Of a stretch of 64,000 bases of DNA, positions 1 through 58,233 are shown piece after piece. The position numbers and the translations under genes are program-made. The notes beneath the pieces were generated by a model. The model was not told where the DNA came from, did not search any database, and saw nothing but the letters and a program-made list of their open reading frames with translations. Within the stretch, counting starts at the first letter, position 1; each line of letters opens with the position of its first letter. The stretch comes from Stegostoma tigrinum (Eukaryota): positions 11,262,867 through 11,326,866 of the forward strand of contig NC_081387.1 of assembly GCF_030684315.1 (NCBI RefSeq), written 5' to 3'.

Positions 1-62
1 TGCGCACTATTCACTGACCATCATTCTAACCTTGCCTGTTCTTTGTATAGACTTTCGCACAG

Positions 63-191
63 GTAATGAGGGGAACAGCACAGCCGAGTCCAAGTCAAAT
101 ATCTCTCTTTTTGTGTTTGCAATGGCGGTGGAGTTGTCTCTCCTGTTCATCATGGTGGTTCTCGTCATTGTCATGCACTGCCAAAAGACTG
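63..191 (+). CDS. NCR3: NCR3/NKp30-like receptor copy 1, transmembrane exon (upstream exons outside window)
   Basis: Acceptor cgcacag| at 62, donor |gtaaca at 192, phase 1-1, 129 nt. Encodes GNEGNSTAESKSNISLFVFAMAVELSLLFIMVVLVIVMHCQKT. Same length and boundaries as the TM exon of copy 2 (53207-53335). Confidence 0.8.
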
Positions 192-221
192 GTAACAATC
201 CGAATTTGTGTGCCTGTGAGT

Positions 222-815
222 ATCATAGTCACATCATCGGACAGCACCGAAACAGGCTCCCAATTCCGCTCGCCCATGTCAGCCAGGTTTTCCACACTAA
301 ACTAATCCTATTTGCCTCATTTTGGCCCATAGCCCTCGAAGCGTTTGCTGTTCATGTCCCTGTCCAAATGTCTTTCCAGTGTTGTAACTGCAGCACTTCC
401 TGCTGGCATTTCATTCCGTATGCGCATCACCCTCTGTGTTTACAACGATGCCCCCTGCAGTCCCGCTCGATGGTTTTCTCCTCTCATTTTAAACCTATGC
501 CGTCTAGTTGTGAGCTCCCTTTCTGTAGGGAAAGTACCTTTTTAGTATCCTTGCCCCAGTAGACGAGACGTATGCAGTTCTCCAAAAGTGTTCTGTACAG
601 CCACAATATGACATCCCAACTCCTATACTCCACGCACTGACCAATGAAGTCAAGTATGCCAACTGACTTCTTCATCTCCCTAACTGCCTGCGATCCCACT
701 TTCAAGGAAGTATATGCTTGAATCCTTTCTGGTCTCTGTTCCATAACACTCCCCAAGGCCCTACCATTCACTACGTATGTCCTGCCCTGGCTTGTCTTAA
801 CAGGATACAACATCT
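222..815 (-). mobile_element. CR1-type LINE 3' fragment (intronic)
   Basis: Minus-strand ORF 484-813 contains FIGQCVEYRSWDVILWLYRTL, the CR1 ORF2 C-terminal motif seen in other copies in the window. Confidence 0.75.
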
Positions 816-1105
816 CATTGTCGGGGTATGAACGGTGCTAACTTTGCAAGTTTTAACCTGTAAGTCGGCCAGGTTGAGTTGGAACGCTGGCTATAAACTC
901 CCCGAGCCCGTTCACTGATTCGCTTTGAATTGGGAGTCGTGTTGTGGCCCTGGGTGGCTGAAAGCAGCACAGCCTCCCTCACATTGGGCTATTTCTCAAG
1001 AAGGGAGTTCAGTCAACTTGGACGACACATTATGTCAATAAGGAGTGAACTTAATTATGGGCTCAGAAATTTAATAATTCTGTTCCCACTTTCCTTTCTC
1101 CACAG

Positions 1106-1273
1106 CCACTCCTCAGCAACCCGAAAGGTAACCGGCTGGATAGAGTCAGTTATTTGATGCCCGATCTGGTATTTCGCTTGTTATCTGTGATTTCTTCAAC
1201 ATCTCACTTCCCTGCTGTACATTTTATTTTTGCTGCAGGCCAGTTCCCCTGTACGCAGAGATGTATAAAGGAG
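1106..1273 (+). CDS. NCR3: NCR3-like copy 1, cytoplasmic micro-exons 1106-1127 (ATPQQPE) and 1239-1273 (RPVPLYAEMYKG)
   Basis: Splice signals tttcctttctccacag|...aag|gtaacc and tttttgctgcag|...gag|gtgagt. Sizes 22 and 35 nt match the paralogous exons at 54258-54279 and 54392-54426, and the phases are compatible. Confidence 0.7.
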
Positions 1274-1710
1274 GTGAGTAACACAGAGAAATATGCATAA
1301 TATCTCGGTTTATAGATTGAATTTGACTTCTCTTTGATGGGGTGGCTAATTGTATCTTTTGATAGTTCTAATCTGAAAATCTGTCAGAAACTAGAGATTA
1401 ACGATGACTTGGAGAATGCCAAGGGGTCATATAGATTTTCTCTCTTAACTCGGCGAATCACTGTTATCTGGAATACATTGACTGATGGGGAAACATGAAA
1501 TACGATAAGAGGAATTTTCGCCGAGAAATAGATGTTTCAAAGGAGGCGAGTTGCAGGATTCATTGGGAAAAAAGTAGCAAATTGGGCTTGATTGGCAGCA
1601 CTTTTATGTTGCATCCTATAATATTACGGTGTCGGGTACTGTATTTTAATGTATAACCTTAAGTGGAGTTTGTTGAATTATACGATATTAATCGCTTCTC
1701 TGTTGCCTAG

Positions 1711-3636
1711 AGACAGGGTGTCTAGTGTTCGCTCTGAAAGCAGAAGAACCGACCTGATACATAACTCCAATTATAACATCAGTGAACTTGGTAACTTGGT
1801 TGTCAATATTTCCAGCTAGTTTGTAGCCATTGTCATTGTGCAGATGGAGATAAAGAAGCGAAGACTCTTGTAGCACAGTCATAGAATACCCCTGGTTTAA
1901 CAGGTCTGGGATCTAGTCCCACCTGCTCCAGAGGTATGTTGTCGCCTCTCTGAGCAGATTGGTCCAAACACATCTGGATAAATACGCAAAGCTCGGGGTA
2001 CCGCTTGCTGTTTATGATGATGTGTGAGATTTTTCAGCTTGCTCCGCTGACTTGCATTGTGTTCCTTTCCAGAGGCAAGTTTCAGGCAGAGCTACAGAAA
2101 ACTGGCAACAAGTAGAAATATCGGAATTCAACAGAGGGCAGTCAAGGAAATGTGTGAAATGAAAGCGGAATGGTCCAGGAATCAACAAAAAACAGAGGGC
2201 ACTCAGGTTTGAGATGAGGAAAGACCGCTTCACGAAGGGTGTTGCATATCAATAGTTTTCTCTTGTCCCGATAGTTCGGTCAATGAGTTGATTAGAGACG
2301 GAGATCGGTAGATGATTCAGCTCTTGATAAACCAAAGAGCATGGTTGGTGGGAAAAGGAATTGATGTCGTTGGCCTAGACGTTTGTACCAACATGCACCG
2401 ACGTGCTATTACAGATATCTGGGATGCGATGGGACTTGTACTGAAGTCGTCTGCCCCAGAGATTGGGACACTCCGAATGTCTCATAGGCTCTACCATCAT
2501 CAACTGCTTCATCAATGACCTTGAGAGCTCATCAAATGCTCTCAGAATTTAATGGGCCACTGGACCCGAAGCGTTAACTTTGATTTCTCTCCACAGGCGC
2601 TGCCAGACCCACTGAGTATTTTCTCTCTATTTCTGTTTCTGTCTCAGTATTTGTTCCGTTGTCCATCTTCCATGTTTTGTTCTCGCTGTTGTTTCCATTA
2701 AGGCCGAGATCAAACTCGTCTTTGCTGTCGCAATTCAGCGTCTCGTCTGTTAAATTTTAATGGTTTCTTCCTAACTCACACGTCTGTTATCTGTTTAGCG
2801 ATTAATCACTTCTTTCATATCCGATGAAGCACATGCAAACGCTCTTGTTTATCAAATATTGTCTCTTGTTCTTATTCTGATTCCAGAAAGTATTTCTCCA
2901 ATCTCTGCATCAAGTCTCTCGTTATTTTTTTTCTGCTGTGAGTTCCAAGATCAGTTTTAAAGAGATGATACTTTGAGTCTCAGTCCTGAGTGCCTGCACT
3001 CCAGTGATCTTGGTTTCAGTGTCCTTTTAACTCGTATTTGACCTCTTGAGTCACTTCGAATGTACTTGCAGGTTGGAGGTTATTGATGTTGCTGAACAGC
3101 GTGTCTCAGGTTGCGTTTTGAACGCTGCACTGTTGCTGACTCGCGGCTCTATACTCGATTTGCACCAGTTCACGCCAACGCTTTAACCTCAATAGGACGA
3201 CGACGGGATCCAATACACCGGGAGCAATGCGCAGGAGGACAGTCGATGTGAGGGCCCGGTGAATGACAGACAGTGACCGTGGGCGCAGTGAAGAAAAAGC
3301 GGCAGAAACGATTCAGCTTTGTGAAACACCGCCAGGGGGTGATAGATGAAGCTCTTCCCCCACCTCTCCCTCCCACCACCACCCAGTGATCTCGCCCTTA
3401 ATTTCTCTGGAGACTCTGCCAGGCGGCCGAAGTTGGAGTGCTGGTGTTGCAGGGAATTGTTCCCCAGTCGAACAGCTTCTGAGTGAGTTCCATCCGTTTG
3501 CGCACATGTTGCAAGGACTTGCAAACTGAAATATATGTAACATTTAGACCGCTCGGTATGAGTTGTAAAATCTTGCTGCCTTTGCTCGATATGTTTTCAC
3601 CCTCACTTTTGAACGGTATCGTGCCACTCAAATAAA
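1711..3636 (+). other. NCR3-like copy 1, degenerate distal tail exons (1711-~1757 and from 3196) and 3' UTR with AATAAA at 3631-3636
   Basis: Homologous to copy 2 exons 55027-55067 and 56597 onward. The 1711 exon is 5 nt longer, has lost its GT donor (ctg|atacat) and reads ETGCLVFALKAEEPT*. The last exon has a 1-nt deletion relative to copy 2. The polyA signal is conserved in both copies. Confidence 0.55.
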
Positions 3637-5289
3637 CAGGTCGAAGCAAATGCTAAAAATACAGTGAATGTCTTCTATGTTCGCCCTCGTCCGTATCCAC
3701 ATGCACCCAGTTTCGGTCCACAACTCCTCAGGCTTCTTTTTAAAAAAATCTAATTTGAAAATAAAACGGGGAGAACTGAAGGACGGTCTACCTGTCCCAA
3801 ATGCCTGTCTGAAGGAGACATTCTGGCATCTGTGTGACAACACCTCTGTGTAAGAGAAACGGCACAGAACCACCTCTCTCCGAAAGGCACAGTACTGTCA
3901 CATGTTGTCAACCTTTTCTTTCCTCTTTGCTATCATTCAGTTTTGAATATGTGTCTCTCTTTGGCTCCTAAAGAGTGGGAGAGAGAGAGATATTCAACTC
4001 AGAGATCATAATGCCAGTATTCCTCATGACTAAGATGCTGATGTTTTAAGGATTTCGAAACTATTATTCCCGACACCACTGGGTCCAATCCTTCCCTCCC
4101 TCGAGACACTGACATTAGGGCCACCAGCAATGACAGGCCCGTGTGAGGCATGTTTTAACCAATCTGCACAAGAGGTGTTAGTGCATACCCTTGGAGCAGG
4201 TGCGAGCTGAACACATCTTTTAGCTCAGAGGCAGTGACGGTCACATTGTGCCACAAAAACGCTCATCTCCTTGTGAAGTTAGTGACGTTGCAGGACTGGG
4301 TGGTGATGTTATTCCTCTTTGTGGCGTCAACGATGACGCAGGGCGCCAGGAACACCCACATCCGGATGACGTAGAGAGTTGTCATCAATGAGGTAGAGAA
4401 GGTCTAACATCAGTGTGATAACGAGGGGACCAGTGGGAGTCAAGGCAGGTCGATTGGGCTGAATGGCTTACTCCTGTTCTTGTACATCTGCGTTCAACTG
4501 TTGCCTGGTTCACAGTAGCCCTTCAAGTTAGGAAACCTGCAGTCCTTGTCTGGCCTGCCTAATGTGGCTCAAGCCCCACAATAACGTGGGTGTTTCTGAA
4601 GGGCCCTCTGAAAATGTCCGGACTAACCCATCAGAAAAGGGCAGCAAATACTGGCATTTGAACCTATGCAAGAATACCACGAATGAGTAAACTAAAAGTT
4701 ATGAGCTCCCATCCCAGGGAGTCTGCACCCCAAAGTATATCACCTCATCTGATGCATTTGAGGACGGGCAGGGAAATGGAGTTAGGCTACACCATCTCAT
4801 CGGGTAAGATCTCATTGAATGGCAGAACAGGCAGAAGGGGCTGGATGGCCACCTCCCGTTCTTATGTTGCAAATGCTTGCTGTGTGCAAATTTCCGCTGG
4901 GCCTAAAATACTTGGCGGGGGTGGGGTGGGGGGAAACTCATAGGAGTAACGTGATTTGGGAGGGTCTGATTCACCAGACAAAACAAAGAATTTTGGGAAA
5001 ACTGAGCAGGCCAAGCAGCATCTATGGAGAGAGAGAGAGAGAGAGGGAGAGAAAGAGCGAAAGTTTCGAATCCAGCAACCGATCCTCAGAATTGGTAACA
5101 ACAGCTGTCTCAACTTAAATACTGAGTTCCGTGACTGAGGAATCAAGGACTAAAAGCCAGGTATTTTAGTCAAAGTTTTTTTTTGATCTTCAAAACTTGA
5201 AACTTATAAAAGTATCAACGTTGTCCTGAATTATCACAGGAATAAAAACATTCTAACTGAATTTACTGTGACTTTGATATTCCTTCCAA

Positions 5290-5677
5290 CCGGAAGAACT
5301 GCGAATGTCGGAAATCAGAAACAAAGCAAAGTTGCTGGAAAAGCTCAACAGACCTGGCAACATCTGCGAACGAGAAAACAGAGTTAACGTATAGGGTCCA
5401 GTGACCCTTCCTCAGAACCGTTCTCAGAAACGCTAACGTTATTCCAGAACCCTCTCCCCATCCCCCTCTCTGATGAAGGGTCTAGGCCCGAAACGTCAGC
5501 TTTTGTGCTCCTGAGATGCTGCTTGGCCTGCTGTGTTCATCCAGCCTCACATTTTATTATCTTGGATTCTCCAGCATCTGCAGTTCCCATTATCACTCAG
5601 AAACGTTAACTCCGTTTTCTCCTTCGCAGATGCTGTCAGAGCTGCTGAGCTTTGCCAGCAACTTTGTTTTTTGCTCC
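5290..5677. mobile_element. Palindromic Penelope-derived short element (family B) interrupted by a family A Penelope 3' end
   Basis: Arms caaagttgctggaaaagctcaacagacctggcaacatctgcgaa..gagttaacgt (5327-5390) and their reverse complement (5603-5670). The insert 5438-5595 is flanked by ctcagaaacg(c/t)taac at 5423-5437 and 5596-5610. Confidence 0.75.
5466..5500 (+). ncRNA. Minimal type I hammerhead ribozyme motif in Penelope 3' end
   Basis: CTGATGA (5470-5476), stem II gggt-ctag-gccc, GAAAC, then GTC cleavage triplet. Stem III is reduced to palindromic ACGT and stem I is only about 2 bp. Confidence 0.6.
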
Positions 5678-9912: not shown

Positions 9913-12641
9913 TTAGTTGTTCGCATTTGCTTTATTAGTCAATTGAATAATTAATGCAAATGGATAATGCACTGCATTTTTCAAATGCTGTCTGAACCTG
10001 GACTGAGTCACCCCATAAATGAATGCATTTGTACAAGAACTTATTTCCGTCAGCATAACTCCTACCTGTTGGAAAATATATAAAGATTCATTGTAGTTCT
10101 GTGGATTAACTCCAGCAATGTTATAATATAAGAAGTTTAGAACACATAAAAACCACAGGAGTATGAAACTGCCAGATATGGCGAAGAGTAAAATCATAGG
10201 CTTTCTCCTGCTTTCCATTTCTGGGTCAGGGTGATCCTCTGTCTTGCTCTGATTCATCAGTCTCTTACGGACTCGACTTGTCCCTAAAATATGTCTGACT
10301 GTGAGAGCATTTAATAATAAAATTAAAACAAATGGGATTGATGGGGTTAAAACCCTATCAAACCAACTAAATGCTACCCAACCAGGATCACTATAATAGC
10401 TTGGCTTTGTATTACAAAACCAGGGAACATTATCAATTTCTTTTACAGGTTTGTATACAAAGTAAAAAGGCATGTTTTTAAAACAGAACAAAATAAATGT
10501 TGTTCCTAGAACTACAACCACAGTTTTCTTGGTGCAGTATTTTATTTTCAGCTTTCGATGACAAATGGCCACAAAACGGTCAAAGGAGAATGCGATGGTG
10601 AACCAGACAGAACAGTCTCTCTATATATAAAACAGGACAATGAGGCTACGACATACAGGTGTAATGCTCAAAAATGATCCTGGAAAGTAATACAAGCTGA
10701 CCCATAAGAGTATGAACTCAAGGATAGTGTACTGTAGATCTGCTGTTGCCATGCTCACAAGGTAGCAAGTGGTACAGGTGGAAAGGCCACATTTTCCACA
10801 GGATAAGATCAAAATTGCCACTAAATTAGCTGTAAACAAGAGAAAAGAAAGGTGATTACTGATCAGATGTTCTCTTTGTTGGAGTCCAGTGAGCAAATAC
10901 AGGATGCCTAGCACTCCATGTGGGTTGGGCTTTAGGGAACACTTTCAAAATTCTCTAACCTGATTGCAGTGAGTTTTCATCCGGGATCACTCGAGTTAGT
11001 ATATGGGATGGACAAACACCAATGCTGAGGAGGCACATTGCCAGTTTATGTATTTTATTGAAGCTATGTTCCTCATGAAGAATAGCAAAGCAATCATGGT
11101 TTAAATTTAGTACATCTGCAGAAATCAGTGATACAAGGGGAGAGATGTGTCTCGGTAGAGGAGTTTCAAAGTGGTGGTATGTAGGCTCATCAAGTGATTC
11201 AGCAGGAAAATGAAATTTTAGAGACAATCGTAGATGAATGGAGTGTCAAAAAGGGAAATTTCATCCAAGCGAGGTTTCTGTGTATAATTTTGGTCTCCTT
11301 CTCTAAATAATGTAATTATATTACAAGCAGTTCAATAAAAGATTGACTTGACTGATTCCAGGTTGAGCAGGTTGGCCAATGTCAGCTGGAGTTTAGTAGA
11401 AGAAATGATGAACCTATTAAAACATACAGTCGCTCCAATGTTCCACACACAGTGACCGGTCTCAGAGTGCTGATTAGGGCATTGACTCTGGTTCTGGAAC
11501 TCACTGCCATGTCAGACCTCAGAGCCCCGCCCACATCTGTGAAGAAAATTAGAAGGAATGCTGATTGAGGAGATATTTCATCTTCTGGTCAAGCGTGGAA
11601 CAAAGGGACACAGTTTCAGAAAGAGTGGTCTTTGATGTAGATCTCGGATAGGGAGATTTCTTTTAGTCTGTAGAATTCTCTTTTCTCCAGAGAACAGCTG
11701 AGGCTGGATTATTCACTACATTCGAGGCTGATTTTGAGAATTTTGTGTTGAAAATGGATTCTACCTGGTGTGGATAACAATGAAAGCAGAGTTGAGAACA
11801 TGACACATCATGTGTGCATTCTTCAACATATGATAGCTGAGTTCAATGGTGTGAAGTCTCTACCTCTTCTTGATTTAGGATGTAATCTGGTCTGTAGCTT
11901 AAATTCTGGACAGCAAGCTTTTACCTATTTTATTTCACACCTTCTTGTTTCACTCCATTTCATGACCCACTTGCGAGACAATTTGATATTGACTGGGTAT
12001 AATCACCATTTTCCGAATGGACCATAGGAATGTCATCCCGTCAGAGAGAGACAACCGATAGCTATTTAATCTGAGTGCCCCATACCTCAGGCAAAGGAAA
12101 AGGTTGAGAAGGATGGTAACCTCAGCAGGTGCCGGAATTGAACGCACACTGTGGGTGTTAATCTGCATTGCAAACCAGCCACCCAAGCTAACAAACCTTC
12201 TGCATTGACTCATGCTCCCAGTGATAATGTGTTCACTGTGTCAGAGGTTCTACTTGGATGAATGATCCCCATGAAGGATAATACTGCAGTGACTGACGCT
12301 CCCAGTAATACTTCCCCTCGGCAGTTCTAATATACTGAGTGTTCCACAATGCATAATAATTCGGTGAGCTTTTGCAGAACAGATATGTTTATTCTCATTT
12401 TAAGGATGGAATAAAATCAAAAGGCTATTTCAGGAAATTTGAGTTTAAAAAAAAATCATTGATTAGGGTCTGCAGAAAGTCACTGTTCAATCAGAATGCT
12501 ACATTATGAGCCATTGATTGAAAATCTGAGAGTAGCTCTCCCATGCATTTACACACTGTCAATGCTCTTTGTCACTTACCAGGAACGCCGATGATTGAGA
12601 GCCATGTAATACATTTTCCTGAAGTTGTTAAATGTTTCCAT
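9913..12641 (-). pseudogene. GPR139-like: GPR139/GPR142-like class A GPCR pseudogene (exon 1 12641-12580, exon 2 10829-9913)
   Basis: Exon 2 reads ANLVAILIL...MATADL...PVC...FSFDRFVAIC...SSCTNAFIY with an in-frame TAG at 10623-10621 in TM3. Exon 1 (METFNNFRKMYYMAL/IIGVP|gtaagt) carries a frameshift. TATAAA at 12706-12701. Confidence 0.85.
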
Positions 12642-22268: not shown

Positions 22269-24649
22269 TCACTTTTGAATGAGAGTGAAGGGATATTTGA
22301 GGGCACGCAGTAGCTCCTGCCTGAACTTACTCTGGGTCACTGCATAAATGGCCGTGTTAGTGCAGCAGCTCAGAAGCTGAAGCATAATTCCTACTTTTTC
22401 ATAAATTTCGTAAGGGCTAAGTAGAGATGTGAGAAGAAAAAAATATGTCATTCTATAATACAGGAAATAAGTGACAGTTGTGATCCAGAGCAGGATAAAG
22501 CTGCCAGATATTGCAAACAGTAAAATGATGGACCTTTTACGATTCTTCATCTCAGGGTCTCTGTCATTGCTCCTGTGGACACGGAGGTTCATCCGCGCCT
22601 GACTGGCCGCTAAAATATACCTGACAGTGAGGATGTTCAAAAGCAAAATCAATAGGAATGGAAGAATGGGAGTTAACAGCTGTTCAATCCAAGAAAAAGC
22701 CATTGCTGCAGTTTGAAAGTGAACCACTGGTGATACAAAGCAACCCCGTGCTATGTTGTTCACTCGCACATGGGGAATGTACAAGAAGGCCCAGGGAATG
22801 TTCTTTAAACAGAAGAACAAGCTCATTGTAATTGTCACCACAAAAGCAGTTTTCACTGTGCAATATTTGGATTTTATCTTGAGACAGCAAATGGCTACAA
22901 AACGATCAAAGGTAAAGGCGACTGTGAACCAAACAGAAATGTCGATGGCAGTCGAAGAGAGGAACAAAATTACTCTACAAACGGAAGTGTACAGCAGCAG
23001 GGAGTCCCACCAATAAATCACGGCAATCCGATATAACGTTACGTTAAAGACAACCACCATGAAATCTGCTGTCGCCATGGCTACCAGGTAGTGAGAGATG
23101 CATTTGGAGAGATCGCATTTCCCCTGACTCAGGACCACAATTGCGACCAGGTTCACTGTGACAAATAGAAAAGAAATCAGTTACGTAAGAGGCTGGGGTG
23201 AATGATAATGCGTAAAATGCCATGGCATTGTCATTTTATTTTCTCTCTGTGTTCTGATCTTCTCTGTTGTAGGTGCTAGTCATGTTGGTAGAACGAATTT
23301 GCCATGACTTACCGGGGCAGTGCTGAAACCACTTCCTGAAGTCTTTATTAATTTTATAAGGTCCACAAAGATTCCTCAATTGATTCAATCTCTGGACCCA
23401 GGTTGACAGAAAGCGCACTGACTTCACAGATTGGAGAGAGAGAGAAAGTGTGCTCCTGCATGTTGGAGAGCAAACGGCTTGACTGAATCTTACTCCTATC
23501 TCTAAACTGTGCAGTCACTTGAAAAAATAAACACAGGCCTGTTTTCAGACAGAAGACATTTGTCTTTGTGCATCTGTCAGTAATCCATAATCTAATCTGC
23601 TACTTTACCAATCAACACTTCATTTGTATGCAACCTCTAGGCTCCAGTTGCAAACACTGCTGCATCTAACAGCTACACAAGTAGTACACACAGTGAAAAT
23701 CAAATTATTCCCTTTCTGTACACATCGATATTCATGGTTATTAGAACCCTGAGACGTAGTAGGAGTATCAATTGGGTCAACCTGTTTGGCTCGGCATTCA
23801 ATCAGGACACAGCTGATCTGATCACCTTCAATTCCGTGTTCCACACTGTTCCTCATGGGCCTTGATGTGCACAGTCTTTTCAAATTGAAGAGTCACATTG
23901 GGCATCTGGGCCAATTATTTTTTGTTTGAGTCTTGAGGTTATCTCCCTCTAGCCAACTACAATCCAGTAGCAGAGGTAAAGTTGGACAGCACTGAGCATA
24001 AATCTGAGCAGGAGAGAGTCAACACTCGCAGGAGTTAGAAAAGCTCTATGATTAGGCTAATGAGTGTGTGGTTAAAAGCAGATTTTTTTTAAAAAATTGG
24101 TACAATAAGTAAAATAAGAACGAAGGCAACAACCAAAATGAAAAGGAGTGGGAGAGGAGAGGTGAGATGCCTCAGATAGTGTATTAGAGAAGAAATTAAG
24201 GTTAGAGATATTAGAAGACAGTCAAACTAAGCGCAAAACTTTGCAAAATAAGACAATATCAAGATTCAAAATGAGTAAGAACTTAAACAATACTGTGATG
24301 GGATTGATCAAGAGTGGTGACGTAACTGAGATTTAAAGAGAATAGAAAAAGAGTAATGACTGATGATAAGTGAATGTAATCTTGTTTGCATTATGATGAA
24401 TTTAATCTATTGAGAGAAGGCAACACCAATGAAAAGAAATTGTGAGGGGGAAGACAAACTGTTCTGAAAGTGAAATCAATTTCTATAATGGAGATGGCTA
24501 AGTGAGAGCAATGCTCACGGATTTAGAAATCAATACAATGCCACCACTGGAACAAATTTCACAAGTATGTAGCACTTACCAGGCACTCCAACTCCAGCAA
24601 GGATAGGATAGTATATGGATGCAACCAGAGACATTTCTGTCCAAAACAT
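22269..24649 (-). CDS. GPR139-like: GPR139/GPR142-like class A GPCR, intact, 2 exons (24649-24580, 23155-22269), 318 aa
   Basis: Exon 1 MFWTEMSLVASIYYPILAGVGVP|gtaagt splices in phase 1 to cacag|(V)NLVAIVVL. Seven hydrophobic segments, MATADF (TM2), FTFDRFVAIC (TM3), ECL2 Cys and SCCTNTAIY (TM7). Confidence 0.92.
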
Positions 24650-30550: not shown

Positions 30551-32665
30551 CAGCTTACAATACAGCCTCATGTGTATAATAATTTACCTTTCCTTACCAA
30601 ATAATTAATTTTCTGCACGCAAAAAAAAGTTGAAAAAAGTCAAATGCATAAACCTTAAATGAAAACAAGCATTTTTCTGAATAACCAAATTTTAAACAAA
30701 GACTCATCATCAAATGGTCCAGCTGAAATCTCTCAGTCTTTGGATATAAACAAGAACCTCAGCCCAGAGCTATCCATGTCTAGGCCTCTCCAAATGCTCT
30801 GTAAGCACAACTTCGTTATTTAAAAAAGTAAATCTCTTTAGCGATTTCAAAGAAATTCTCTTCTGCGCCGATAATCTTTGAGGAAAAAGTCAAGCAGTGT
30901 ATGTGTAAACCTCCCCAAAAGGCCCATTCACAGAAATCCATTCAAAAAAGAATTGCGCACTTTTTGTTGGCATTTTTGAGTATGAAGTAAGTAAAAATGA
31001 TCCAAAATAAAGGTCATATTCTACTGAAATATAATGCATTTAAGAAATCTCGAAGTACATCTTGAAAAATGCCTTCTGTCTCAGGAACCACCATTCCTCA
31101 GAAGCTTGACAGAATAAATGCCGAGAGGATGTTTCCCCTCATGGGAGAGCCTAGGACAAGAGTGCACGTCTTCAGAACTAAGGGGTTGCAATGTAAGATT
31201 GAGGTGAGTAGGAGTTTCATCATTCAGTTAGTTGTGAGTCTTGGGTACTTCTTTCAACAGAGAGCTGTGGGTAGCTCTGGTATATTTAAGGCTGAGGTAG
31301 CTAGATTCTTGATGAGGACAGGAATCAATGGTTTTAGGGAAAGGGTTGGAAAGTGGATGTGAGCAAGATCAGATCCACTATTATCCTACTGATTGACAGA
31401 ACAGGCTCAAAGGACCAAATCACCTGACCGTGATCCATTTTCATGACGGCCTTATGGCTATATCTCTGCTTCACAAAAGAGCTGTGGAATGGTGACAGCA
31501 TCTGCTGTTGACATCAAGGTGAAATGTAACTGAGTGTGCCTTCAGGTATCCTTCAATACTTGGTTAATGAGAATCATAAGTAAAACTGTCTGATGATTCA
31601 CCTTGTATCTTACACAAAGGAAGATGGTTATGAATATTGGAAATCAGTCAGCTCAGCTCTAGGGCTACTGTGCAGGTGTTCTTATTGGCACCAAATCCAA
31701 AAAACACCCACTCTCTTCACACTGTCACTTAGTAGCAGCAGTGTGCACTCTCTACAAGGTGCACTGCAGAAATTCACAAAAAAATTCTGAGGTAGCAGCT
31801 TCCAAGTAACAACTTCAATCGAAAAGGCCAAGGGCAGCAGAAACATGGGAACACCAACACCCGAAGTCTCACTGTAACAAGAGAGCAGCCCTATGATCTG
31901 GTTGGGTTATGGCTGCTCTTTCCTTTACTCCTTTAAGACAGACTTTGTTTTCTGTAGCCAGTTGATATACAGAAGGTTTTTAATATTTGGCTAAAGCTCA
32001 GCTGGGTTCATGTTGTCCGTTATGTCTCTGGACGGAGGGGCGAGCTCATCTGAACTGGGAAGCTGAATTTCCCTGTCCATTTCCTGTAGCATTGGAAATC
32101 CTTGCCTTCCCATCACTCACCATCTCCCTTTTGAAATCTAAATTTGTGTCTAATCGCACTACACTCTCCTCAGCAGTCAATTACAGATGTTAACCAGTGA
32201 GTGCATCTCTACACATCTTCTGTGGCCTTTAGTTCCATGACTGTAAACTTAAACTGATGCCCTCTGTTTGTCAATGCAATGTGATCTCTCTCTTCTGATG
32301 TGCTCTGTTCAGACTCCTCAAGCATTTGAGTATTTTCAAGGATGAGAGCATGTAACACCATCATATTGTCCATCCAACTGCTGTTCTCCCTTGCTCTGGG
32401 TTCCATCCCAAAACATTGTTCAATCCTCCCATCGTTCTGCATTCCATCTTCAGCATATATAATTAACAGTAACTCTGCTTTCTCTTCACAGATACTGCCA
32501 GACTTGCTGAGTTTGCTTGGCAATCTTTCTTAAAATTTATTTTTGACTCTGACTGTTCCTAGCTCCCATCCGTTATGGTCGAACTTCATCTGAGATGCTC
32601 CATCATTTAATAAAATGTGAGGCTGGATGAACACAGCAGGCCAAGCAGCATCTCAGGAGCACAAA

Positions 32666-32700
32666 AGCTGACGTTTCGGGCCTAGACCCTTCATCAGAGA
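32666..32700 (-). ncRNA. Minimal hammerhead ribozyme motif (left arm)
   Basis: The reverse complement reads tctCTGATGAagggtctaggcccGAAACGTCag with an intact core. Confidence 0.6.
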
Positions 32701-33385
32701 GGGGGATGGGGGGAGGGAACTGGAATAAATAGGGAGAGAGGGGGAGGCGGACCGAAGATGGAGAGTAAAGAAGATAGGTGGAGAGGGTGTAGGTGGGGAG
32801 GTAGGGAGGGGATAGGTCAGTCCAAGGAAGACGGACAGGTCAAGGAGGTGGGATGAGGTTAGTAGGTAGCTGGGGGTGCGGCTTGGGGTGGGAGGAAGGG
32901 ATGGGTGAGAGGAAGAACCGGTTAGGGAGGCAGAGACAGGTTGGACTGGTTTTGGGATGCAGTGGGTGGGGGGGAAGAGCTGGGCTGGTTGTGTGGTGCA
33001 TTTGGGGGAGGGGATGAACTGGGCTGGTTTAGGGATGCAGTAGGGGAAGGGGAGATTTTGAAACTGGTGAAGTCCACATTGATACCATATGGCTGCAGGG
33101 TTCCCAGGCGGAATATGAGTTGCTGTTCCTGCAACCTTCGGGTGGCATCATTGTGGCAGTGCAGGAGGCCCATGATGGACATGTCATCAAGAGAATGGGA
33201 GGGGGAGTGGAAATGGTTTGCGACTGGGAGGTGCAGTTGTTTGTTGCGAACTGAGCGGAGGTGTTCTGCAAAGCGGTCCCCAAGCCTCCGCTTGGTTTCC
33301 CCAATGTAGAGGAAGCCGCACCGGGTACAGTGGATGCAGTATACCACATTGGCAGATGTGCAGGTGAACCTCTGCTTAATGTGGA

Positions 33386-34726: not shown

Positions 34727-34946
34727 CCTGTTCTTCCTCTCACCCATCCCTTCCTCCCACCCCAAGCTGCACCCCCAGCTACCTACTAACCTCATCCCAC
34801 CTCCTTGACCTGTCCGTCTTCCCTGGACTGACCTATCCCCTCCCTACCTCCCCACCTATACTCTCTCCACCTATCTTCTTTACTCTCCATCTTCGGTCCG
34901 CCTCCCCCTCTCTCCCTATTTATTCCAGTTCCCTCCCCCCATCCCC

Positions 34947-34981
34947 CTCTCTGATGAAGGGTCTAGGCCCGAAACGTCAGC
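34947..34981 (+). ncRNA. Minimal hammerhead ribozyme motif (right arm)
   Basis: CTGATGA 34951-34957, stem II gggt/gccc, GAAAC 34971-34975, GTC 34976-34978. Confidence 0.6.
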
Positions 34982-47930: not shown

Positions 47931-50057
47931 GTGCTAAGTTAAATATCACCTCTGAGCACAGATAGGAGAATCCGTCGGGTGCTGTTATGGGACTTGGGGT
48001 CTATATGTGTTTTTTTTTTGGTCTCGCTCCAGGGTATGTTGGAGTCTCAGGCGGGTGGGTTGTACATGCTTACAGCCTAGAAGCAGACTATTCGGCCCAC
48101 TGAGGTGCACATTGTCCCCTGAAATACCAAACACTCCCGGATTTTTCCATAGCTTTGAAAATGAACTCGCTTCAAGGACATGTCAACGTGAGCATGGCTG
48201 ATCTTTACTTTCCTGCCCGCTCCCCGTAACCCCAGTGATATTACTCTCCACGTGGCCAACGCCCAAGCTCAGTACAGTCCCTGTCCAAGATTGCATCTAC
48301 CCCGAGTCTGCCCATTTCTCCAGTTCTACCCTGTTTGCGCTGAAGTCAGTTACAGCGCCTTCTTGAGAGCGTGGACGGTGGCGCAGAGACAATGTCACTG
48401 AACTGGTCAATCCAGAGGCCAATGGGGCAGGTTTCAAAAGGCATTAAAAAATCAAAATTCCAGCAAGTGCTGTAATTTGAATGAGCAAACGTGGGGTATA
48501 AAACTCACGTCAGTGATGGTGACTGCGAAAACTATTGTTTACAATCGCCCCACGGGTGAGAGTCAGTCTTAGTGGAGCCTGCAGAGCCGCCCCTTTATGA
48601 TTCATGCTCGACTGCCCGGTGAATGGTCTGAGAACGCAGCCACGCTGCAGATCCATTAGATTTGCGACACAAATGCTGACCTTTTCAGCAGAGTGTCCAT
48701 CCCACAAGGAAAATAGTTGTTTGACCAGTCTCTACCACGAAGCGCCCTTCTAAAAACTTGTCCATTCATGCAATCTCATGGGGGATGCCTTCAAGAACAG
48801 CTGGACATTTTGAGGTGTGAAATGCTTTATTACCCTGTCCAACTCTATTTTGATTCAATCCACACCGTCCCCCCTCACATTTGTCACGTAAATATTGCCC
48901 TCATCAGGCTTTGCTTGTTAATGGTTCCCTGACCATGTGGCTGTTTTTCCTGGTGGTGCAAGTGTAGTAAAGCGGTAACTGTTTACAGGGTCACTGCATC
49001 TACAAACACAACCACGGCGTGCAGGGGGAGCTTAGGGGTTAAAAATAAAAGTTGAATCGTACAGGACAGAAGTAACCGTTTGGAGTATGAAATCTATGAA
49101 CATTAACGTATATTAATACCTGCATTCGCCCATTTTCCCGCACTAGGCCCAAAGCCTTTAATGTTATGACACTGCAGTTGCTGATCCAAGTACTTTTTAA
49201 GGGTTATAGGATGCCCGCCCTCAACTACCCTCCCAGGCAGAGCGCCCCTCATCTCACACCACACTCTCGGTGAAACAACCTTTTCTCAAATCCAGCACCG
49301 CTCCCCCCAGCACACCCCTTACCCACCAACCCTCTATCCTTTCATTTTAAAAGTGTACCTCTTGTGATAGACTCTTCAGCAAAAGGGTACAGCTGTTTTC
49401 TATTTACCCTGACCATACCCCTCACAATCTCATACACTTCTACCATGTACCCCACCACCTCACCCCCCAACCCCCACTAACTGTCTCTGCTCTGAAGAAA
49501 ACGACCTGAGTTTACGGAGTCTCTCTGCAGAACTGAAGTGTTCCAGCCATCACAACATCTTGGCTGATTCCCTCTGCCCCTCCTTCCCGTGCAATCACCT
49601 CCCTCCTGCCGTGTGCTGACTAGATCTGCACGTACTACTCTCGCTGTGGTCAAACCAAAGTGCTGTACAGCTCCAACATGACCTCGTTGCTGTTTTAGTC
49701 TGTGCCTTAAGTGATAAAGGCAAGTGCCCTGTGTGTCTTCTGAACTCCCCAATGTCCCTCTCCTACCACCTCCACGGAAATTTAGACAAGTTCACTCTGC
49801 CTTTATAGCTTCTTAGAGTCTCTCCATTCATTGAATACTCCCTTGTCTTGTTCCAAGTCTTATGCGTGGGTTTAGAAACATAAACTGAAACTATTTGTCT
49901 GCGTGAGAAAAAAAAACGAAACGCTTGCTGTCTGTTTTCTTGTGTTTTTCCCGCCCCCATATCCGGAAATAGAACAGAAGTTCATTGGTCTGTTGAATGA
50001 CTCGTTTGTGCCAATCCATACGTTACTTGCATTATCAATCGACCAGCTGCAGGGAGA

Positions 50058-53000
50058 ATGTACTGCATTACAGTTACCTGGATCACCGCTGTACTCTCAG
50101 GTAAGCAGGTTAAGACATGGATTGGCACAAGGCTCGCACTAGCATGCATGATGTATTCTCAAATTTTTGCCTTTTTTGAAGCCGAGGCACCTTAATATCT
50201 TGGGGCTGCAGTTAATACATGCTGCCTGATCAACACGAACATATCTCCAAACGGAAATTCACTGAGGCAGTTGCTTTACAGAGACGCTTTGCAGTGACTT
50301 ATGGTGAACTGAAGTGTTTAATTGAAGGGCTAACAGCGCAAAGGAAAATACAGCGTCGATATTGGAAATGGTAGGATAGGCAAAAGATGAGTCAAATATC
50401 ACTGGTTAAGATGAGCAAGGAGTTGAGGATAGTCCTTGATACATAGGCGCATCGAGAAAAGGAATGAGAGCAGTGAATTGTTCTCCTATATACCCAGTCT
50501 CAGTGAATGAATAGCCGCTTTCTCCGCCGTAGGATTGCAGGATGCTTTTCATCCAACAGAATCCAAATATGCCCTATTCCTTACAACTTAGGGTGGGAGA
50601 GATGCAGTGCTGCTGAATGTAAGCAAGCACATTGCTCGATGGTTTTCTGCGCAACCCTGATTAACTGGAGCCGTTTAAGGGAACAAATACAGATGCAGAA
50701 AATAGGGGCAGGTGTCGGAGTTCGACCGCTGTAGCCTGCTCCACCATACATTCTGTTCGTGGCCAATTACCTAACACAACGGCCTGCTCCTGCTATAACC
50801 CTATATGTTTCACTCCTTTTAGACCAAAGTGTATATCTAATTCCTTTTTGAAAACAGTTGATGTTTTGGCCTCCGTTGCTTTCTGTGGCACAGAATTCCA
50901 CAGGTTCACCGCTCTCTGGGTAAAGACGTTTCTCCTGTTTTCGATGCTAAATGGACTACCCCGTATTCTCAGACTGGGACCCTGATTCTGGCCTCGCCAA
51001 CTGTCGGGAGTACCCTTCCTCGTTTACCATAATATCTAGTCCTGTTTCTATGAGTTCCCTCCCACCATCTCTTAGTTCTTAGTTATAATCCTAACACAAC
51101 CTTCCCCTAGTTCTTCATTTGAAGTCATAGATGTGCACTGTCTCCGACATACTAAACATTTCCTTGACCAGGCATTTACGAAAATTGATAAACAGTTCTG
51201 AACGAAGCGTTCACAGGTCATTTATTGTGCCTAATGCGCCGTTCAACGCCTGGTAATATCTCTACATGAAAGGAGGAAATTTGTTTAACTGGGATAGTAC
51301 TCCTCAGTAGCACGGTGATGCGGGCGAGGAGACAGTTTTGCAGTGGTACGCAGATCGCATAGTGCCCATTTAACACTATCGATCTGAACAGAAGCAGCTT
51401 CCAACTGGAAGGTACATGCATCACGCTGGTGAAATCCGAGATGGTTTTATTTTCTGTTTGGGATTACTTCACTCTTCTTAGTTATATGAAAAAAAAAGAA
51501 ATGATACTTTGTCGGGGACAACCTGAAACTTGAGTTAGCTTATGAGATTCGGACGAACATCAAGTTGCAACATAGAAATGGGATCCATTATCAGAAGAAT
51601 TTAACGATAACCATCACGTGGAGCAAGTGATAGGTCTTGAATGTGCCATGATAAGCATAATTTGGATTAAAACTGGAATTAAATAATGTGTTTTTAGAAA
51701 AGAAAAGGAATGCAGTTTTTTTGAAGTTTGTCTTACCCACTTACAGCAGTTGCTGTTGGAAATATCACAGTTATTCAGAGCCCGGACTCTCTCACCAAAA
51801 CGCCGGGCCAGACAGCGCGCCTGGGCTGTACGTATCAGGGACCCAGCGGCATCGGCAGCTACACGTGGCACCGGGGGAACAAGCGGGGGAATGAAGTCTC
51901 CAACAACACAGCGGAGTTCCGAGGCCGGGTGTTGGCGGCGGGCCAAGGGGATTTCAGGGACAGGAGAGACGCCTCGATCAGAATCGTTGATCTGAAACCG
52001 GAGGACACCGGGTTCTATATCTGCGAGGTGGCTTTCATGGGAATGCGGGAAGCCTATGGAGCAGGGACCACACTGACAGTGACGCGGGGTAAGTGCGGGG
52101 CAGCCGAGTTATTCCTAACGAAACAATATGGACCTAATCATGGAAATTCATTCCAGTAATGTATTTCTTTTCGTCTTTAGGCAAACTATCCACTCTGTTA
52201 ACCCAAACTGCTATCTCTACAGTAACGACATCAACCTCAGGTACCCCTTCAATTACCACACTATCCGGGCTTGGAATGATCAATATCTTGCAGTACCTGA
52301 CTCAAAATCCTGTTATGCCCTCCCTAATAAACACTGTAGGTGTGTAAGAACAGATAAACCACCGTGTTGAGGCGGAAACAAGGAGTTCGAAACTGTCCCA
52401 CCGTGTAATGACATTATAGCTGATCTGTAAAATAACGTCATATATCTGTCTTTGGTATTTAACCTTTGCATAACAAAAAATACTCCCTCAGATTTAAATT
52501 AACAGCAGATTTAGCATCCACTACAGTTTTGTGTGGAGAGCTCCAAATATCTACCACCCTTTGTATGTAGAGGCGCTTCCTGATATCTCTCCTGAACGGT
52601 CTGGCCTCAGTCTCAGACTATGCCCCTTAATTCCAGAAAACTCGCTCAGTGGAAATAGTTTTAATCAAGTGGCTCGTCATCTTCAGAAGGAAGCCGCTTT
52701 AGAGGTTCACAATGAATACTGAACTTCTCAGCGGTGGCTGAATTCCCCAGAAGTAATGATTGAGATTATTAAAATTGGATTTCAAACAGTTTTGGGCAAT
52801 CGTTTAACAAGTAATCGGTCATTGGGTGCAAGTGGGGAATTGGAATGCTAACGAGGGCAATAGATGGGACTTGGGGTATTTCAGCGGGTGAAATAACACC
52901 CGGCAACCAATGGCCCGAAACTGATAGCAGTGTCTTAAAGTTCCTGAATTAACGTCCCGATTGTGCCCCCTGAAGAATTGGAAACTCTCCTTTCGGCCGC

Positions 53001-56000
53001 TATGTCAGTTTATGTTTTCAATCGATGATTAAGTTCGATCAAGGCCAATGAAAAATATTAGTTATGGGCTCTGACAGTTAACGATTCTGTTATCACATTC
53101 CTTTCTCCACAGCCATTCCTGCGCACCACACAGAGTTGAAACGTTGCGCACTATTCACTGACCATCATTCTAACCTTGCCTGTTCTTTGTATAGACTTTC
53201 GCACAGGTAATGAGGGGAACAGCACAGCCGAGTCCAAGCCAACTGTTTCTCCATTTGTGTTTGCAATGGCGGTGGTGGTGCCTGTCCTGATCATCATTGT
53301 CGTGACAGTTATTGTCAAATACTCCCGAAAGACTGGTAAAAAAAATATTAATTTGCCTCAGTATGTCGTAGAATTATACGCGATGGAACCAAACCTTTTA
53401 GTCCACTCTTCCACGCCAACTGGTTTACCAAACTGAACTCATCCCATTTGTCCACGTTTGACTCAGAATACTTTAAATCTTTCCTGTTCACGTTCCTGTC
53501 GAAGTGTCTTTTTAAGTATCGTAACTATACCTGCATTTACCGCTCCCTCTGGTAGTTCATCCCACATAAGAAGCACTCTCTGTGTGAAACGCTGCCCCTC
53601 CGGACCCTTTTAATTTTTTTCCCTCTCACATTAAACCTGTGCCCTCTAGTTTTCAACTCCACTACTCTCGGGTAATGACCTTTACATGTTCTTCCTTTTA
53701 ATGTTCTGGACGACCAGAACTGTATGCCATACTCCAAAAGTGGCCTCACCGACGTCCTGTCTAATGGCAACATGACATCCCAATACATCGAAAACTCAAG
53801 GCTCTGAGCGATGAAAGTGAGAGTGCCAAACGCCTTCTTCACCACCCTCTCTATCTGCTCCGTCAGTTTCAAGGAAACATGTACCTGAACCCCTCGCTCT
53901 CTGTGTTCCACACGGCCTTGCTATTAACTTCGTAAGTCCTGTTCTGGTTTGTCTTACTAAACCTCGCGTATTGTCATTACGAGCGACACTAACTTTGCAA
54001 GTTTTCACCTTATAAGCCGGCCAGGCTGAGTTGGAAGGCCGCCTATAAACGCGTCCGATTCTGCTCATCTGTTGCTTTGAATTGAGAGTAGAATTGGGGC
54101 TTTCGGTGAGTGAAAGAAGCGCTGCCTCCTTCACGCCAGGCCATTAGCCAGTTTCAGCTGATGTGGTTAATGTGTCGGACACATTATATCTGTAAGAAGT
54201 AAACTCAGTTATGGGCTCTGACAGTTAACGAACTTTATCACATTCCTTTCTCCACAGCCATTCCTGAGCAACTCGAAAGGTAACTGGCTACAATAAAATC
54301 CGTTATTTAATATCCAGACTAGCATTTCCTTTGTTGTCTGCGTTTTCTTCAACATCTAACCTCCGTGCTGTCCTTTTATATTTTGTAACAGGTCAAATCC
54401 CCTATATGCAGACATCCATGACAGAGGTGAGTAACGCAGGGAAATATGCGTAATATCTCATTTGAAACAAATACTGGTTTAATGCAGTGATTTCGACTTC
54501 TAATTGATGGCGTGGTTAATGGATTTACCTGTAAATTATAATCTGACAATCTGTCAGGAACTAGAGCAGAAAGATTCATGACGACTTGGAAAAAGCAAAG
54601 AGAGAACCTGTGGATTTTCTCTTCTTTCTAACTCAACGAACCACCATGATCAGGAATACATTGGCTGGTGGGAAGGCTGGTGGATGACGACGAGCTAAAC
54701 ATTCACTGTGAAACAGGCGTTTACTTGAAAGGAGACCAAGTGCAGGATTAAATGGGAAGTGGCACTGATCGGCAGCACCCCCAGAGGGTTAGCCTGTGCA
54801 GGACTGGCCGAATGACCTCCCTGGGCTCGACTGATTGTATAATCCAAGAGCCCTTGCTCCCAGCCTGTCATTCAATAAGAAATATTTGACATTGCCGTTT
54901 ACAAGCATGCTGCTTTCAAATAAGCCATGTTGTATCGGAATTATAGCGCCAGATGCTATATTTTACTGTATAAGTTCAGTCAGGTGTATCAAATTAGACG
55001 ATACTAATCCCCTCTCTGTTTTCCAGAGACCAATTCTGCTCGCTTTGAATGCAGAAGAACCGATCTGGTATGTAACGTTAATTACTCAATGATTCAACTT
55101 GGCGAGCTGCTTGTTAATATTTCCAGTTAGATTATAATTATCGTAATTGTGCAGCTCGAGTTAAAGAAGCGAGACTCTTGTAGCACTGCCTCGGAATACC
55201 TCTGGTTCAGAAGATCTGGAACCTTGCCCCACCTGCTCCAGAAGTGTTGTAACCTCTCTGAACAAATTGGTCCAAACACATCTGGATAACTAAGGAAGGT
55301 TCGGGGAGTAGATTGGTCTCTCTGGGAATGGGTGTGAGATTTTCAGCTTTCCACACTGGCTTGCATTGTGTCCCTTTCCCAAGGCAAGTTGCGAGCAGAG
55401 CCGCGGTATTGGCAACGAATAGAAGTATCGGAATTCAACAACGGGGAGCCCAGGGAATGTGTGAAATGGAAAACTGAGAAGGATCCAGAATTCAAAAGAA
55501 AAAGAAAAAGCTCGTTTGAGATGAGGAGAGAGTTTTTCACAAGGAGTGTTGCAACCTTCGGGTGGCATCATTGTGACACTGCAGGAGGCCACCGGATTTC
55601 TCTAGCCCAGATTGTTCGCTCAATGAGTTCATCACACACTGAGATCGGTAGATTAGTCAGATCGTAAGGACGGAAGAGGGCATGGTGGGCGGGAAAACGG
55701 ATTTGACGTATCCAGGTTTTTAACCGACCCGTTCAGGCATGCTATTACACAAGTCTGGGATTAGATGGGATTAGAAGTAGGGTCTCCTTGCTCAGAGCTT
55801 TGCACACTACCAATATGGCGTGGACCCAACCACCGTCAACTGCTTTATCAATGACCTTGGAAGCACACCTAGTTATCTCAGTGCGTGAATGGTCACTGGA
55901 CCCGAGATGTAGTCTCTGATTTCCCTCATAAGACCTGTTGACATTTTCCAGCAATTTCTGTTTCAGTCTCTCAGTATCTATTGGGTGTACAGAAAGTGGG

Positions 56001-56635
56001 TGTTTTTGTTTTGCGACAATGTACTGTGTATTCGTAATTCTGTCTTCCATTGAAGCGTGTCTAGTTCTAAACTCTACCACGTTTTGTTCTCGTTATTTTG
56101 GTCCTAAAATAAGCTCTGGATCAAACTTCGCTGACACGTTTCAGCATTACAACTGTTAACTTTAAGGGGTTAATTTTAGCTGAAATTGTGCATTAGCTGT
56201 TTTGCAATCAATCTCCTTATTATACCCTTTGAAGCAAAATCAAACGCTCTTGTTTATTTCAAGGGCTTAGCAGATATTGTCTCTCGTTACTACTTTAAAC
56301 CAGACTGCTTTTCACCAACCTCTGCTCCAAATGCATCGTTACTTCTTTCTGCTGTCGTTTCCGAGCATACTTTTAAATAGATGACTCTGCCGTCCTGAAC
56401 GATTGCGTCCCCTGTTCTTGATTTTAACGGTCGTTTATTGAATAATTGACATATAGAGTCACTTTGATTGTGCGGAGGATGGTGTTATTTGCTTGAACAG
56501 CGTGTCTCAGGTTGTGTTTTAGACCCTATACTATGTTTGACTCGTGGTTCTGCACTCGATTTGCATCTGCTAATGCGAACGCTTTAACCTCAACAGGGCG
56601 ATGGTGAGGCTCTGTACACAGAGATCAATGCGTAG
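50058..56635 (+). CDS. NCR3: NCR3/NKp30-like Ig receptor copy 2, 8 coding exons (50058-50100, 51747-52088, 52181-52240, 53207-53335, 54258-54279, 54392-54426, 55027-55067, 56597-56635), ~236 aa
   Basis: All junctions are GT-AG with compatible phases (sum 711 nt). Signal peptide MYCITVTWITAVLS/AVAVG, V domain, S/T stalk, TM, and tail AIPEQLERSNPLYADIHDRETNSARFECRRTDLGDGEALYTEINA*. The stalk exon could alternatively end at 52339. AATAAA at 57032-57037. Confidence 0.75.
51747..52088 (+). CDS. NCR3: VJ-type Ig V-set exon of the NKp30 family
   Basis: LGCTY...IGSYTWH...EVSNNTAEFRGRV...DASIRI.DLKPEDTGFYICEV...YGAGTTLTV mirrors human NKp30 motifs (IGSVTWF, EVRNGTPEFRGRL, GNGTRLVV). Phase 1 splice sites ttacag| and |gtaagt. 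Confidence 0.92.
53365..53960 (-). mobile_element. CR1 LINE 3' fragment (intronic); further CR1 pieces at ~49060-49855 and ~50680-51100
   Basis: Minus ORF 53537-53911 VVKKAFGTLTFIAQ...VRPLLEYGIQFWS...TRGHRFNVRG. Confidence 0.8.
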
Positions 56636-57261
56636 GTAGGCAGTCGATCGAAGACCCTGGTGAGCAAACAAACGGTGGTGTACGCCACAGTGAAGAAAGA
56701 GCGGCAGAAACCATCCATTCCTGTGAAAGATCGCCACAGGGCGATAGATACAATCTCCTAAGACATTCCCCCGCCTCTCCCACCAGCAATCACCCGGTCT
56801 TTCTCCGTTAATTCCGACAGAAACTCTGGATGGCGCCTGGAGCTCGGGTGCTGGTGAGAGAAAATTGCCACTACTTGTCCCCCTTGCTGAGCGAGCTCCG
56901 TCCGTTTACGAACCTGTTGCAAGGACTTGCCATCTATTGAACATTTAGGCTGTTAGTTGTTAGTGGTGAACTTTTGCCGCCTTCGTATGAGATACCTTCA
57001 CCCTCCTTTTTGAGCGGTGTCGTGCCACTTAAATAAACAGGTTGAAGCAAATGTTAGAAGTGCAACCAACATCCTGAGTGTTCATGCTCGTCGCTATCCA
57101 AATGCACCCTGTTTCGTGACATAGACCCACCAGCATAATCAGAATCCGGGCGCTATTGATAGTTCCTAACATTCCCTGGCAGTCGAGCCAAGTTGTCCTT
57201 TTGTCAATTACTGCTTTGTTTAAAATGACAATCTTAAATTCAGTTTAACGGAAGGGCACTC

Positions 57262-57800: not shown

Positions 57801-58233
57801 AAGAACAGCCATGTGCGGCGGTAATGACAGAGTCCCTGCCGTGCAGAAAGAGGCATTTCAGCCCATCAAGTCCTGACTGGCCCTCGAAAGTATATCCAGC
57901 CCCCGGCTCAGCCCCGTAACTTACCCTTTAACCCGACTTTTCCCATGGCTAACCCACCTAGCCTGGACACTATGGGACAATTTCCTATAGTCAATCAATT
58001 TAACCTGAGCATCTTTGGACTGGGGGAGGAAACAGAAAAGGACAGGGGAGAACGTGCAAGTATAAGGCGACATTTTCTGGCATCTTCAGTGAATGGACCG
58101 CGGGAGATAAGGGAGCCAGTTCCCTTGGGATTGCTGGAGAGGCCAAAAATAACTGCAGATGCTGGAATCCAGATAGACAATCAGGAGGCTGGAAGAAAAC
58201 AGCAGGCCAGGCAGCATCTGGAGGTGCGGAGCA

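Follow-up and report, generated by a model that had tools for sequence, protein, structure and literature searches.

Probable gene conversion over the ectodomain exons of two NCR3-like genes of Stegostoma tigrinum, one of which is now a pseudogene

The NCR3/NKp30 family, marked among other things by binding of B7H6, is said to comprise several divergent subtypes in sharks, which Kinlein et al. reportedly set out in 2021. NCR3 is a non-rearranging, MHC-linked VJ gene (PMC12227049, PMC10751288), and NKp30 has an Arg in its transmembrane (TM) segment (PMC6514059). Paired receptors in which conversion has occurred and one partner is a pseudogene are already described (PMC5701461, PMC2832619), and for CD300C, signalling through a TM Glu, conversion with CD300A and frequent loss are reported in PMC12447643. 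The two NCR3-like genes of S. tigrinum compared here, copy 1 and copy 2, work like the conversion step of such paired receptors. An abrupt change in their identity at base 95 of the analysed DNA probably marks where a tract of 1.5-1.8 kb ends on its 3' side; this tract was likely transferred from copy 2 into copy 1, which is now a pseudogene.

Family identity and duplication of the two copies

The window, the whole stretch of 64,000 nt under analysis (G000:C44:11262867-11326866), was compared together with flanking DNA on both sides, and upstream coordinates are given as w = genome position - 11262866. The V exon of copy 2 encodes a V-set domain (Pfam) of VJ-type within one exon that ends in a G-x-G-T motif, a J-like G strand, and the best PDB match of this domain is human NKp30 (E 8e-14). 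The closest protein to copy 2 is nurse shark NCR3 QTT61898.1 (P0003), at 89% identity, followed by proteins from bamboo sharks (81%) and from horn shark and catshark (66%), and on these protein comparisons copy 2 is the orthologue of QTT61898. The combination of a non-rearranging V-set and a J-like G strand in a single exon with NCR3 proteins as nearest relatives, both among the top PDB matches and in nurse shark, is that of the NCR3/NKp30 family; the TM Arg by which activating NKp30 proper pairs with CD3zeta/FcRgamma is absent, with Arg or Lys in the TM of neither copy. A genome search recovered the TM/tail modules of copies 1 and 2 only, and no third.

Both copies belong to a tandem duplicate, seen as a 53-55 kb diagonal, which includes 7TM receptor genes and has a background identity of ~67-72%. 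Five rhodopsin-family 7TM exons, putatively GPR139-like and some of them with stops, are interleaved with the NCR3-like genes within this duplicated cassette. Past the breakpoint, 28 of 53 residues agree between the two copies, which share 27/52 and 26/52 with bamboo shark, and nurse shark P0003 is matched by copy 2 at 47/53 residues and by copy 1 at 30/53. Since the copies are as far apart here as each is from bamboo shark, and copy 2 is so close to nurse shark, the duplication predates the nurse shark split.

Table 1. Coordinates of the two copies, the conversion tracts and neighbouring elements (plain numbers are positions in the window; G000:C44 numbers are genome positions)
Feature	Position	Strand	Remarks
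Tract B start, copy 1	about G000:C44:11261186		upstream of window
Broken V exon, copy 1	G000:C44:11261203-11261543		within tract B
SINE, 317 nt	G000:C44:11261773-11262089		interrupts tract B in copy 1
Tract B 3' end, copy 1	1..94	+	62 nt intron and 32 nt of TM exon coding stalk
Stalk and TM exon, copy 1	63..191	+	frame open; unconverted from 95
Glu codon in TM, copy 1	131..133	+	GAG; copy 2 GTG, Val
Tail exon 1, copy 1	1106..1127	+	splice sites intact
Tail exon 2, copy 1	1239..1281	+	YAEM (YxxM); read-through stop of short form
Tail exon 3, copy 1	1711..1756	+	5 nt longer than that of copy 2; donor GT lost
Decayed ITIM exon, copy 1	3196..3350	+	frameshifted; degenerate first motif, second Tyr lost
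Tract A, copy 1	G000:C44:11256360-11258200		w-6506 to about -4650
Tract A, copy 2	48186..49800	+	non-coding; ends ~260-280 nt 5' of ATG
Leader exon, copy 2	50058..50100	+	outside tracts A and B
Tract B, copy 2	51730..53238	+	likely donor
VJ-type Ig domain, copy 2	51747..52088	+	single exon, intact; PDB match human NKp30
Ser/Thr-rich hinge exon, copy 2	52181..52240	+	matches nurse shark NCR3 residues 129-149
Templated copy of tail-exon-1 acceptor, copy 2	53062..53122	+	not in copy 1; cryptic acceptor 53113
Stalk and TM exon, copy 2	53207..53335	+	TM uncharged
Tail exon 1, copy 2	54258..54279	+	
Tail exon 2, copy 2	54392..54434	+	read-through stop; end resembles nurse shark QTT61898
Tail exon 3, copy 2	55027..55067	+	splice sites intact
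ITIM exon, copy 2	56597..56761	+	TAG 56633-56635 precedes ITIM VVYATV 56675-56692
7TM exons, window	9913-10851, 22269-23210, 37554-38510	minus	Pfam 7tm_1
7TM exons, outside window	G000:C44:11247461-11248369, 11230507-11231334		
Inverted-end element	32608-35083		794-nt ends 99.2% identical; 448-codon open frame, no Pfam match
TM-Arg NCR3-like gene	G000:C44:11342641-11342967; TM exon near 11338888	minus	convergent orientation to copy 2
Two V exons (L008)	G000:C44:11933757-11934086, 11936061-11936398		86% to copy 2, one broken
NCR3-like gene (L020, L021)	G000:C44:11834683-11842680		three near-identical tandem V exons, TM Glu
Second NCR3-like cluster (L027-L031)	G000:C44:20.15-20.36 Mb		at least 5 V exons; one TM Lys

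The break at base 95 and the conversion tracts

A sequence-only reading of the window had placed a sharp breakpoint between the two paralogues at the start of the TM exon, and the breakpoint is real: positions 1-94 equal 53145-53238 in every letter, base 95 is the first mismatch, and the maximum-likelihood change-point falls on base 95 (2dlnL 308; support 90-99). With upstream DNA added, the exact run is 95 nt long (w0-94) and begins one base ahead of the window. The 62 nt of intron that had been counted within the run is correct given a TM exon beginning at 63, which is most likely its start since the hinge-stalk junction of nurse shark P0003 lies there; an alternative AG lies 12 nt earlier in the same phase. 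Identity past the break had been put at 75-85%. It is 76% in the rest of the TM exon (23 differences in 97, Fisher p = 8e-13 against the tract), and the estimate is too high for the introns, with 300 differences in 884 in the intron after the TM exon (66% identity) and 1065 in 3431 over the whole of 192-3700 (69%). A 94-nt match has a probability of ~3e-15 at 30% divergence and of 0.056 at the rate of the tract itself, so the 100% identity of 1-94 is not special and represents the end of a 97% tract.

This tract, tract B, has an identity of 97.0% (44 of 1461 columns differ) on a background of 66-72%, and extends from w-1680, which is 17 nt 5' of the V exon and corresponds to 51730 in copy 2, to base 94 in the TM-exon stalk. 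Its 5' end is supported at -1693 to -1674 and its 3' end over the same 90-99 as the change-point. Alignment of the upstream DNA, the check that had been proposed for copy 1, gives 97% identity to copy 2 across the V exon, hinge exon and stalk, which make up the mature ectodomain, and both limits of the tract lie at ectodomain edges. Near-identical ectodomains on divergent TM/tail modules are thereby borne out in the DNA (97% vs 66-76%). Identical runs reach a length of 211 nt, compared with a maximum of 71 in 2000 permutations, and such a bounded tract in an old duplicate indicates homogenisation by gene conversion. Exons account for ~19% of the gene with its flanks, and the ends of tract B are both in or beside exons, an arrangement with a rough, post hoc probability of ~3%. 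The SINE that interrupts the tract in copy 1 has best relatives of 94-96% identity among the 40 scored of 7584 candidates.

A second tract, tract A, is 96.6% identical (54 differences in 1576) and ends outside exons, and the DNA between tracts A and B is 72% identical (525 differences in 1887). Since the non-coding tract A has been homogenised to an equal degree, conversion was not limited to the ligand-binding half, and tract A shows that exon anchors are not required for conversion. Patches of 85-87% identity lie within both tracts, which would suggest more than one conversion event.

Coding potential and decay

Copy 2 has a gene model of leader, V, hinge, stalk plus TM and a short tail with an end like that of the nurse shark protein, and all splice sites are intact. 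ITIM and YxxM elements were recognised by their general consensus motifs. An ITIM-type last exon was found in both copies, sharing 19/35 residues with bamboo shark in copy 2 and 15/35 in copy 1. That of copy 2 is in frame and has intact splice sites, its first motif is non-canonical, and its stop is that of the assembly sequence; that of copy 1 has lost the upstream donor and both ITIM motifs and contains frameshifts. A canonical ITIM is present in no predicted translated tail of either copy. Relatives from bamboo shark, catshark and horn shark (P0002, P0004, P0005, P0006) combine a TM free of charged residues with two ITIM-like motifs encoded by the last exon, and a charged TM residue occurs in 0/7 TM-bearing proteins of the subfamily (P0002-P0009, without P0001 and P0010), some of which are isoforms of one gene. 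The ancestral state of one shark NCR3 subfamily was thus a tail with ITIMs and a TM without charge, in contrast to mammalian NKp30. The YxxM motif is ancestral rather than gained, as seen from nurse shark and bamboo shark.

Reading tail exon 3 through its donor yields an ITIM-like motif, a candidate that was rejected because orthologues splice to a further exon. A 50-nt gap near base 0, considered as an exon lost from copy 1, was likewise rejected, as it corresponds to a copy of the downstream acceptor of copy 2. This templated segment is 94% identical to the acceptor of copy 2 itself (54207-54270) and 84% identical to that of copy 1, and its acceptor lies 94 nt before the TM acceptor, with pyrimidines at 17/21 vs 14/21 positions. 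If used, the acceptor is predicted to shift the frame and yield a TM-less, possibly secreted product.

In copy 1, a CAG of the V exon has become the stop TAG, Gly replaces the conserved Ig Trp, one nucleotide is deleted and the V donor reads TT instead of GT, and because of the stop, the deletion and the lost donor, copy 1 is unable to make the ectodomain. With two other V exons as outgroups, 8/9 differences in the V-exon region are derived in copy 1 and 1/9 is ambiguous, and all four of these lesions are among the differences. At least 5 substitutions fall on the copy 1 branch, for which the intron rate predicts 3.7 (P 0.31), so that change in the V exon since conversion appears to fit a neutral rate. 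The unconverted short-form exons of copy 1 are intact, for which P is 0.013 had the gene been dead since the duplication and 0.09 had it been dead for half that time, suggesting that copy 1 probably remained functional through much of its past. Its TM contains a Glu that is one transversion from Val and lacks a conserved Pro, and dN is 0.29 vs a dS of 0.25 over the 53 codons past the breakpoint. No orthologue of copy 1 was found in the protein collections searched, and a weak search by TM exon gave 11 candidates, none of which was scored.

A working pair, in line with the paired-receptor signature named in the sequence-only reading, is not supported, given the broken copy 1, the absence of Arg or Lys from both TM segments and the lack of a translated canonical ITIM in either predicted tail. 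The locus is not a paired-receptor member today, since two defining features are lacking: copy 1 is not intact, with a stop, a frameshift and a lost donor, and the only remaining ITIM, in copy 2, lies behind a TAG in the assembly sequence. As for a charged TM residue or an ITAM, copy 1 has a TM Glu and a YxxM, of which the Glu is private and may be a product of decay. There is no opposite-signalling pair in the current assembly, and the locus would at most be the remains of one.

Origin of the tract

From the observed tract with its two ends, the 66-72% background, tract A and the lesions, a history of interlocus gene conversion may be proposed, in which a break in copy 1 would have been repaired by copying copy 2, 53 kb away. 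The tract ends could have been anchored in exons as the only stretches alike enough to pair, with the introns copied along; exon anchoring alone would produce a tract that ends at the start of the V exon and in the stalk. The direction from copy 2 to copy 1 is suggested by the nurse shark orthologue P0003, to which copy 2 is equally near before and after the break (101/113 residues in V and 47/53 past the breakpoint), a comparison that relies on one outgroup protein, not DNA. Copy 1 would have persisted as a receptor with a short tail long after the duplication and lost its function around when the conversion took place, and once its binding domain and upstream DNA matched those of copy 2, it may have become redundant or may already have been failing. 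This explanation is weakened by tract ends in or beside exons, for which a selective advantage of matching ectodomains accounts no less well than exon anchoring does, by a tract A converted without exon anchors, and by the probably long life of copy 1 (P 0.013), with its TM Glu.

Selection of this kind is central to the alternative that the locus is the fossil of a true pair, in which copy 1 was an ITIM-less, activating-type derivative of an inhibitory copy 2, conversion under selection matched the ectodomains, and copy 1 died once the pressure ended, a fate common for CD300C and SIGLEC16. The coincidence of tract B with the mature ectodomain, the uncharged TM and two ITIM-like motifs of relatives P0002, P0004, P0005 and P0006, and the precedent of CD300C agree with such a pair, as do the loss of both motifs, the frameshift and the lost donor in copy 1, the short form of which stayed open, and the survival of VVYATV behind one stop in copy 2. 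However, the Glu is private and a single transversion from Val, with no charged residue in the seven relatives, and horn shark P0030 combines a TM Glu with an ITIM-like motif, so the residue is no clear activating mark here. The missing Pro, the dN and dS values, an ancestral YxxM and an ITIM exon in copy 2 that is just slightly nearer to bamboo shark also argue against it, as do the lack of a copy 1 orthologue in the collections searched, a V exon that was unconstrained after conversion and decayed immediately, and the non-coding nature of tract A. A fossil pair is accordingly somewhat unlikely. Its wider form is that an activating/inhibitory pair arose within the shark NKp30 family when an ITIM-bearing ancestor gave rise to an ITIM-less Glu/YxxM copy, that conversion limited to the stretch from V exon to stalk held the ectodomains alike, and that the genome was caught just after the collapse of such a pair, with the activating copy dead and the inhibitory copy truncated; this is put forward tentatively and is rather unlikely. 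If true, the life cycle of CD300A/C and KIR type would extend back to cartilaginous fish.

Two further alternatives bear on short-read contigs, which were taken from four runs of two samples, one of which may be the source of the assembly. A living pair with a null allele, where the sequenced animal represents a dead copy 1 haplotype and an intact one segregates as for SIGLEC16/SIGLEC16P, has its precedent in PMC5701461. An exact contig covers the stop, the Trp change and the deletion in 3/4 runs, all from one sample, and for the second sample, with 92 in 100 of the run covered, a contig with the stop and frameshift is not listed, a point in favour of a null allele. The donor lesion, however, is exact in 4/4 runs and both samples and stands at a single-copy depth of 18.4 in the second sample, where the copy-2-type contig across the frameshift has a depth of 16.3, also single- and not double-copy, and four separate lesions and a SINE require long neutral decay, which makes this alternative quite improbable. 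An assembly collapse or mis-join at 94/95 is more improbable still and hardly credible: no short-read contig crosses the 95-nt identical run and reaches unique letters at both ends, leaving the phase across it unsupported, but the tract is 97% and not 100% identical and contains copy-specific indels. Both versions are present at similar depth in 4/4 runs (contigs of 166 nt, one with 0 and the other with 9 differences), and since contigs of both samples contain both, the collapse that had been raised as a concern does not apply. Copy-1 contigs lie on either side of the run in 4/4 runs, and the contig downstream of it begins 30 nt ahead of base 95, the base at which the graph forks. Whichever the phase, two similar ectodomains sit on two dissimilar TM halves. 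Conversion from copy 2 into copy 1 remains the preferred reading, and it provides a clean, datable case in which a gene of a known family of shark receptors underwent ectodomain-bounded conversion and then died. A conversion signature alone does not prove a paired receptor; if relatives keep an intact copy 1, they would allow paired-receptor function to be tested in the oldest of the jawed vertebrates.

An NCR3-like gene with a TM Arg lies ~23 kb past copy 2, has a V domain of 39% identity that is not converted, and resembles bamboo shark XP_043533794.1 in its TM; it is likely an activating NKp30-type member. The two V exons of L008, at 11.934 and 11.936 Mb, have no flank similarity and no TM exon in 26 kb downstream, and match copy 2 exactly over stretches of 37-51 nt, a hint of mid-exon conversion across 620 kb. 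The TM Glu of the L020/L021 gene also occurs in the horn shark relatives P0012 and P0030. In a V-domain tree for cross-species concerted evolution, support at the relevant nodes is low (47-64), with 4 species-grouping vs 5 locus-grouping sites. The inverted-end element in the window has related pieces at 58151-60218 and 5439-5597 and looks like a young DNA transposon derivative.

A weak literature search, with the shark NCR3 family papers outside its scope, returned no published conversion in shark NCR3. The conversion tracts and decayed ITIM exons of copies 1 and 2 were not found in the literature searched, a scope that did not extend to Kinlein et al. 2021, and among the papers listed, none was by its title on paired receptors with an ITIM in cartilaginous fish. 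Kinlein 2021, Flajnik 2012 and Ohta and Flajnik 2015 may already describe an ITIM-type shark NCR3 or the present pair. The process is known and the example is new. Within the shark NCR3 family, QTT61898.1 is like copy 2, at 89% both in V and past the breakpoint, with the same hinge and the same short C-terminus, and copy 1 is without a counterpart. Mammalian NKp30 provides the best PDB match to the V domain (PDB 3NOI) and differs by the TM Arg reported for it (PMC6514059), which neither copy has. CD300A/CD300C, as described in PMC12447643, are like the two copies in having one V domain, ectodomain conversion and an ITIM-less TM-Glu partner that is often lost, but their Glu is conserved and has been tested and the ITIMs of CD300A are kept, whereas here the Glu is private and the ITIM of copy 2 lies behind a stop. 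SIGLEC11/SIGLEC16(P) and CEACAM pairs likewise have tracts over the binding exon and a pseudogene partner, and opposite signalling and co-expression are reported for them (PMC5701461, PMC2832619), whereas the present pair is known from genome sequence alone. Dog CEACAM1/28 is similar in that conversion extends also over upstream DNA (PMC2832619).
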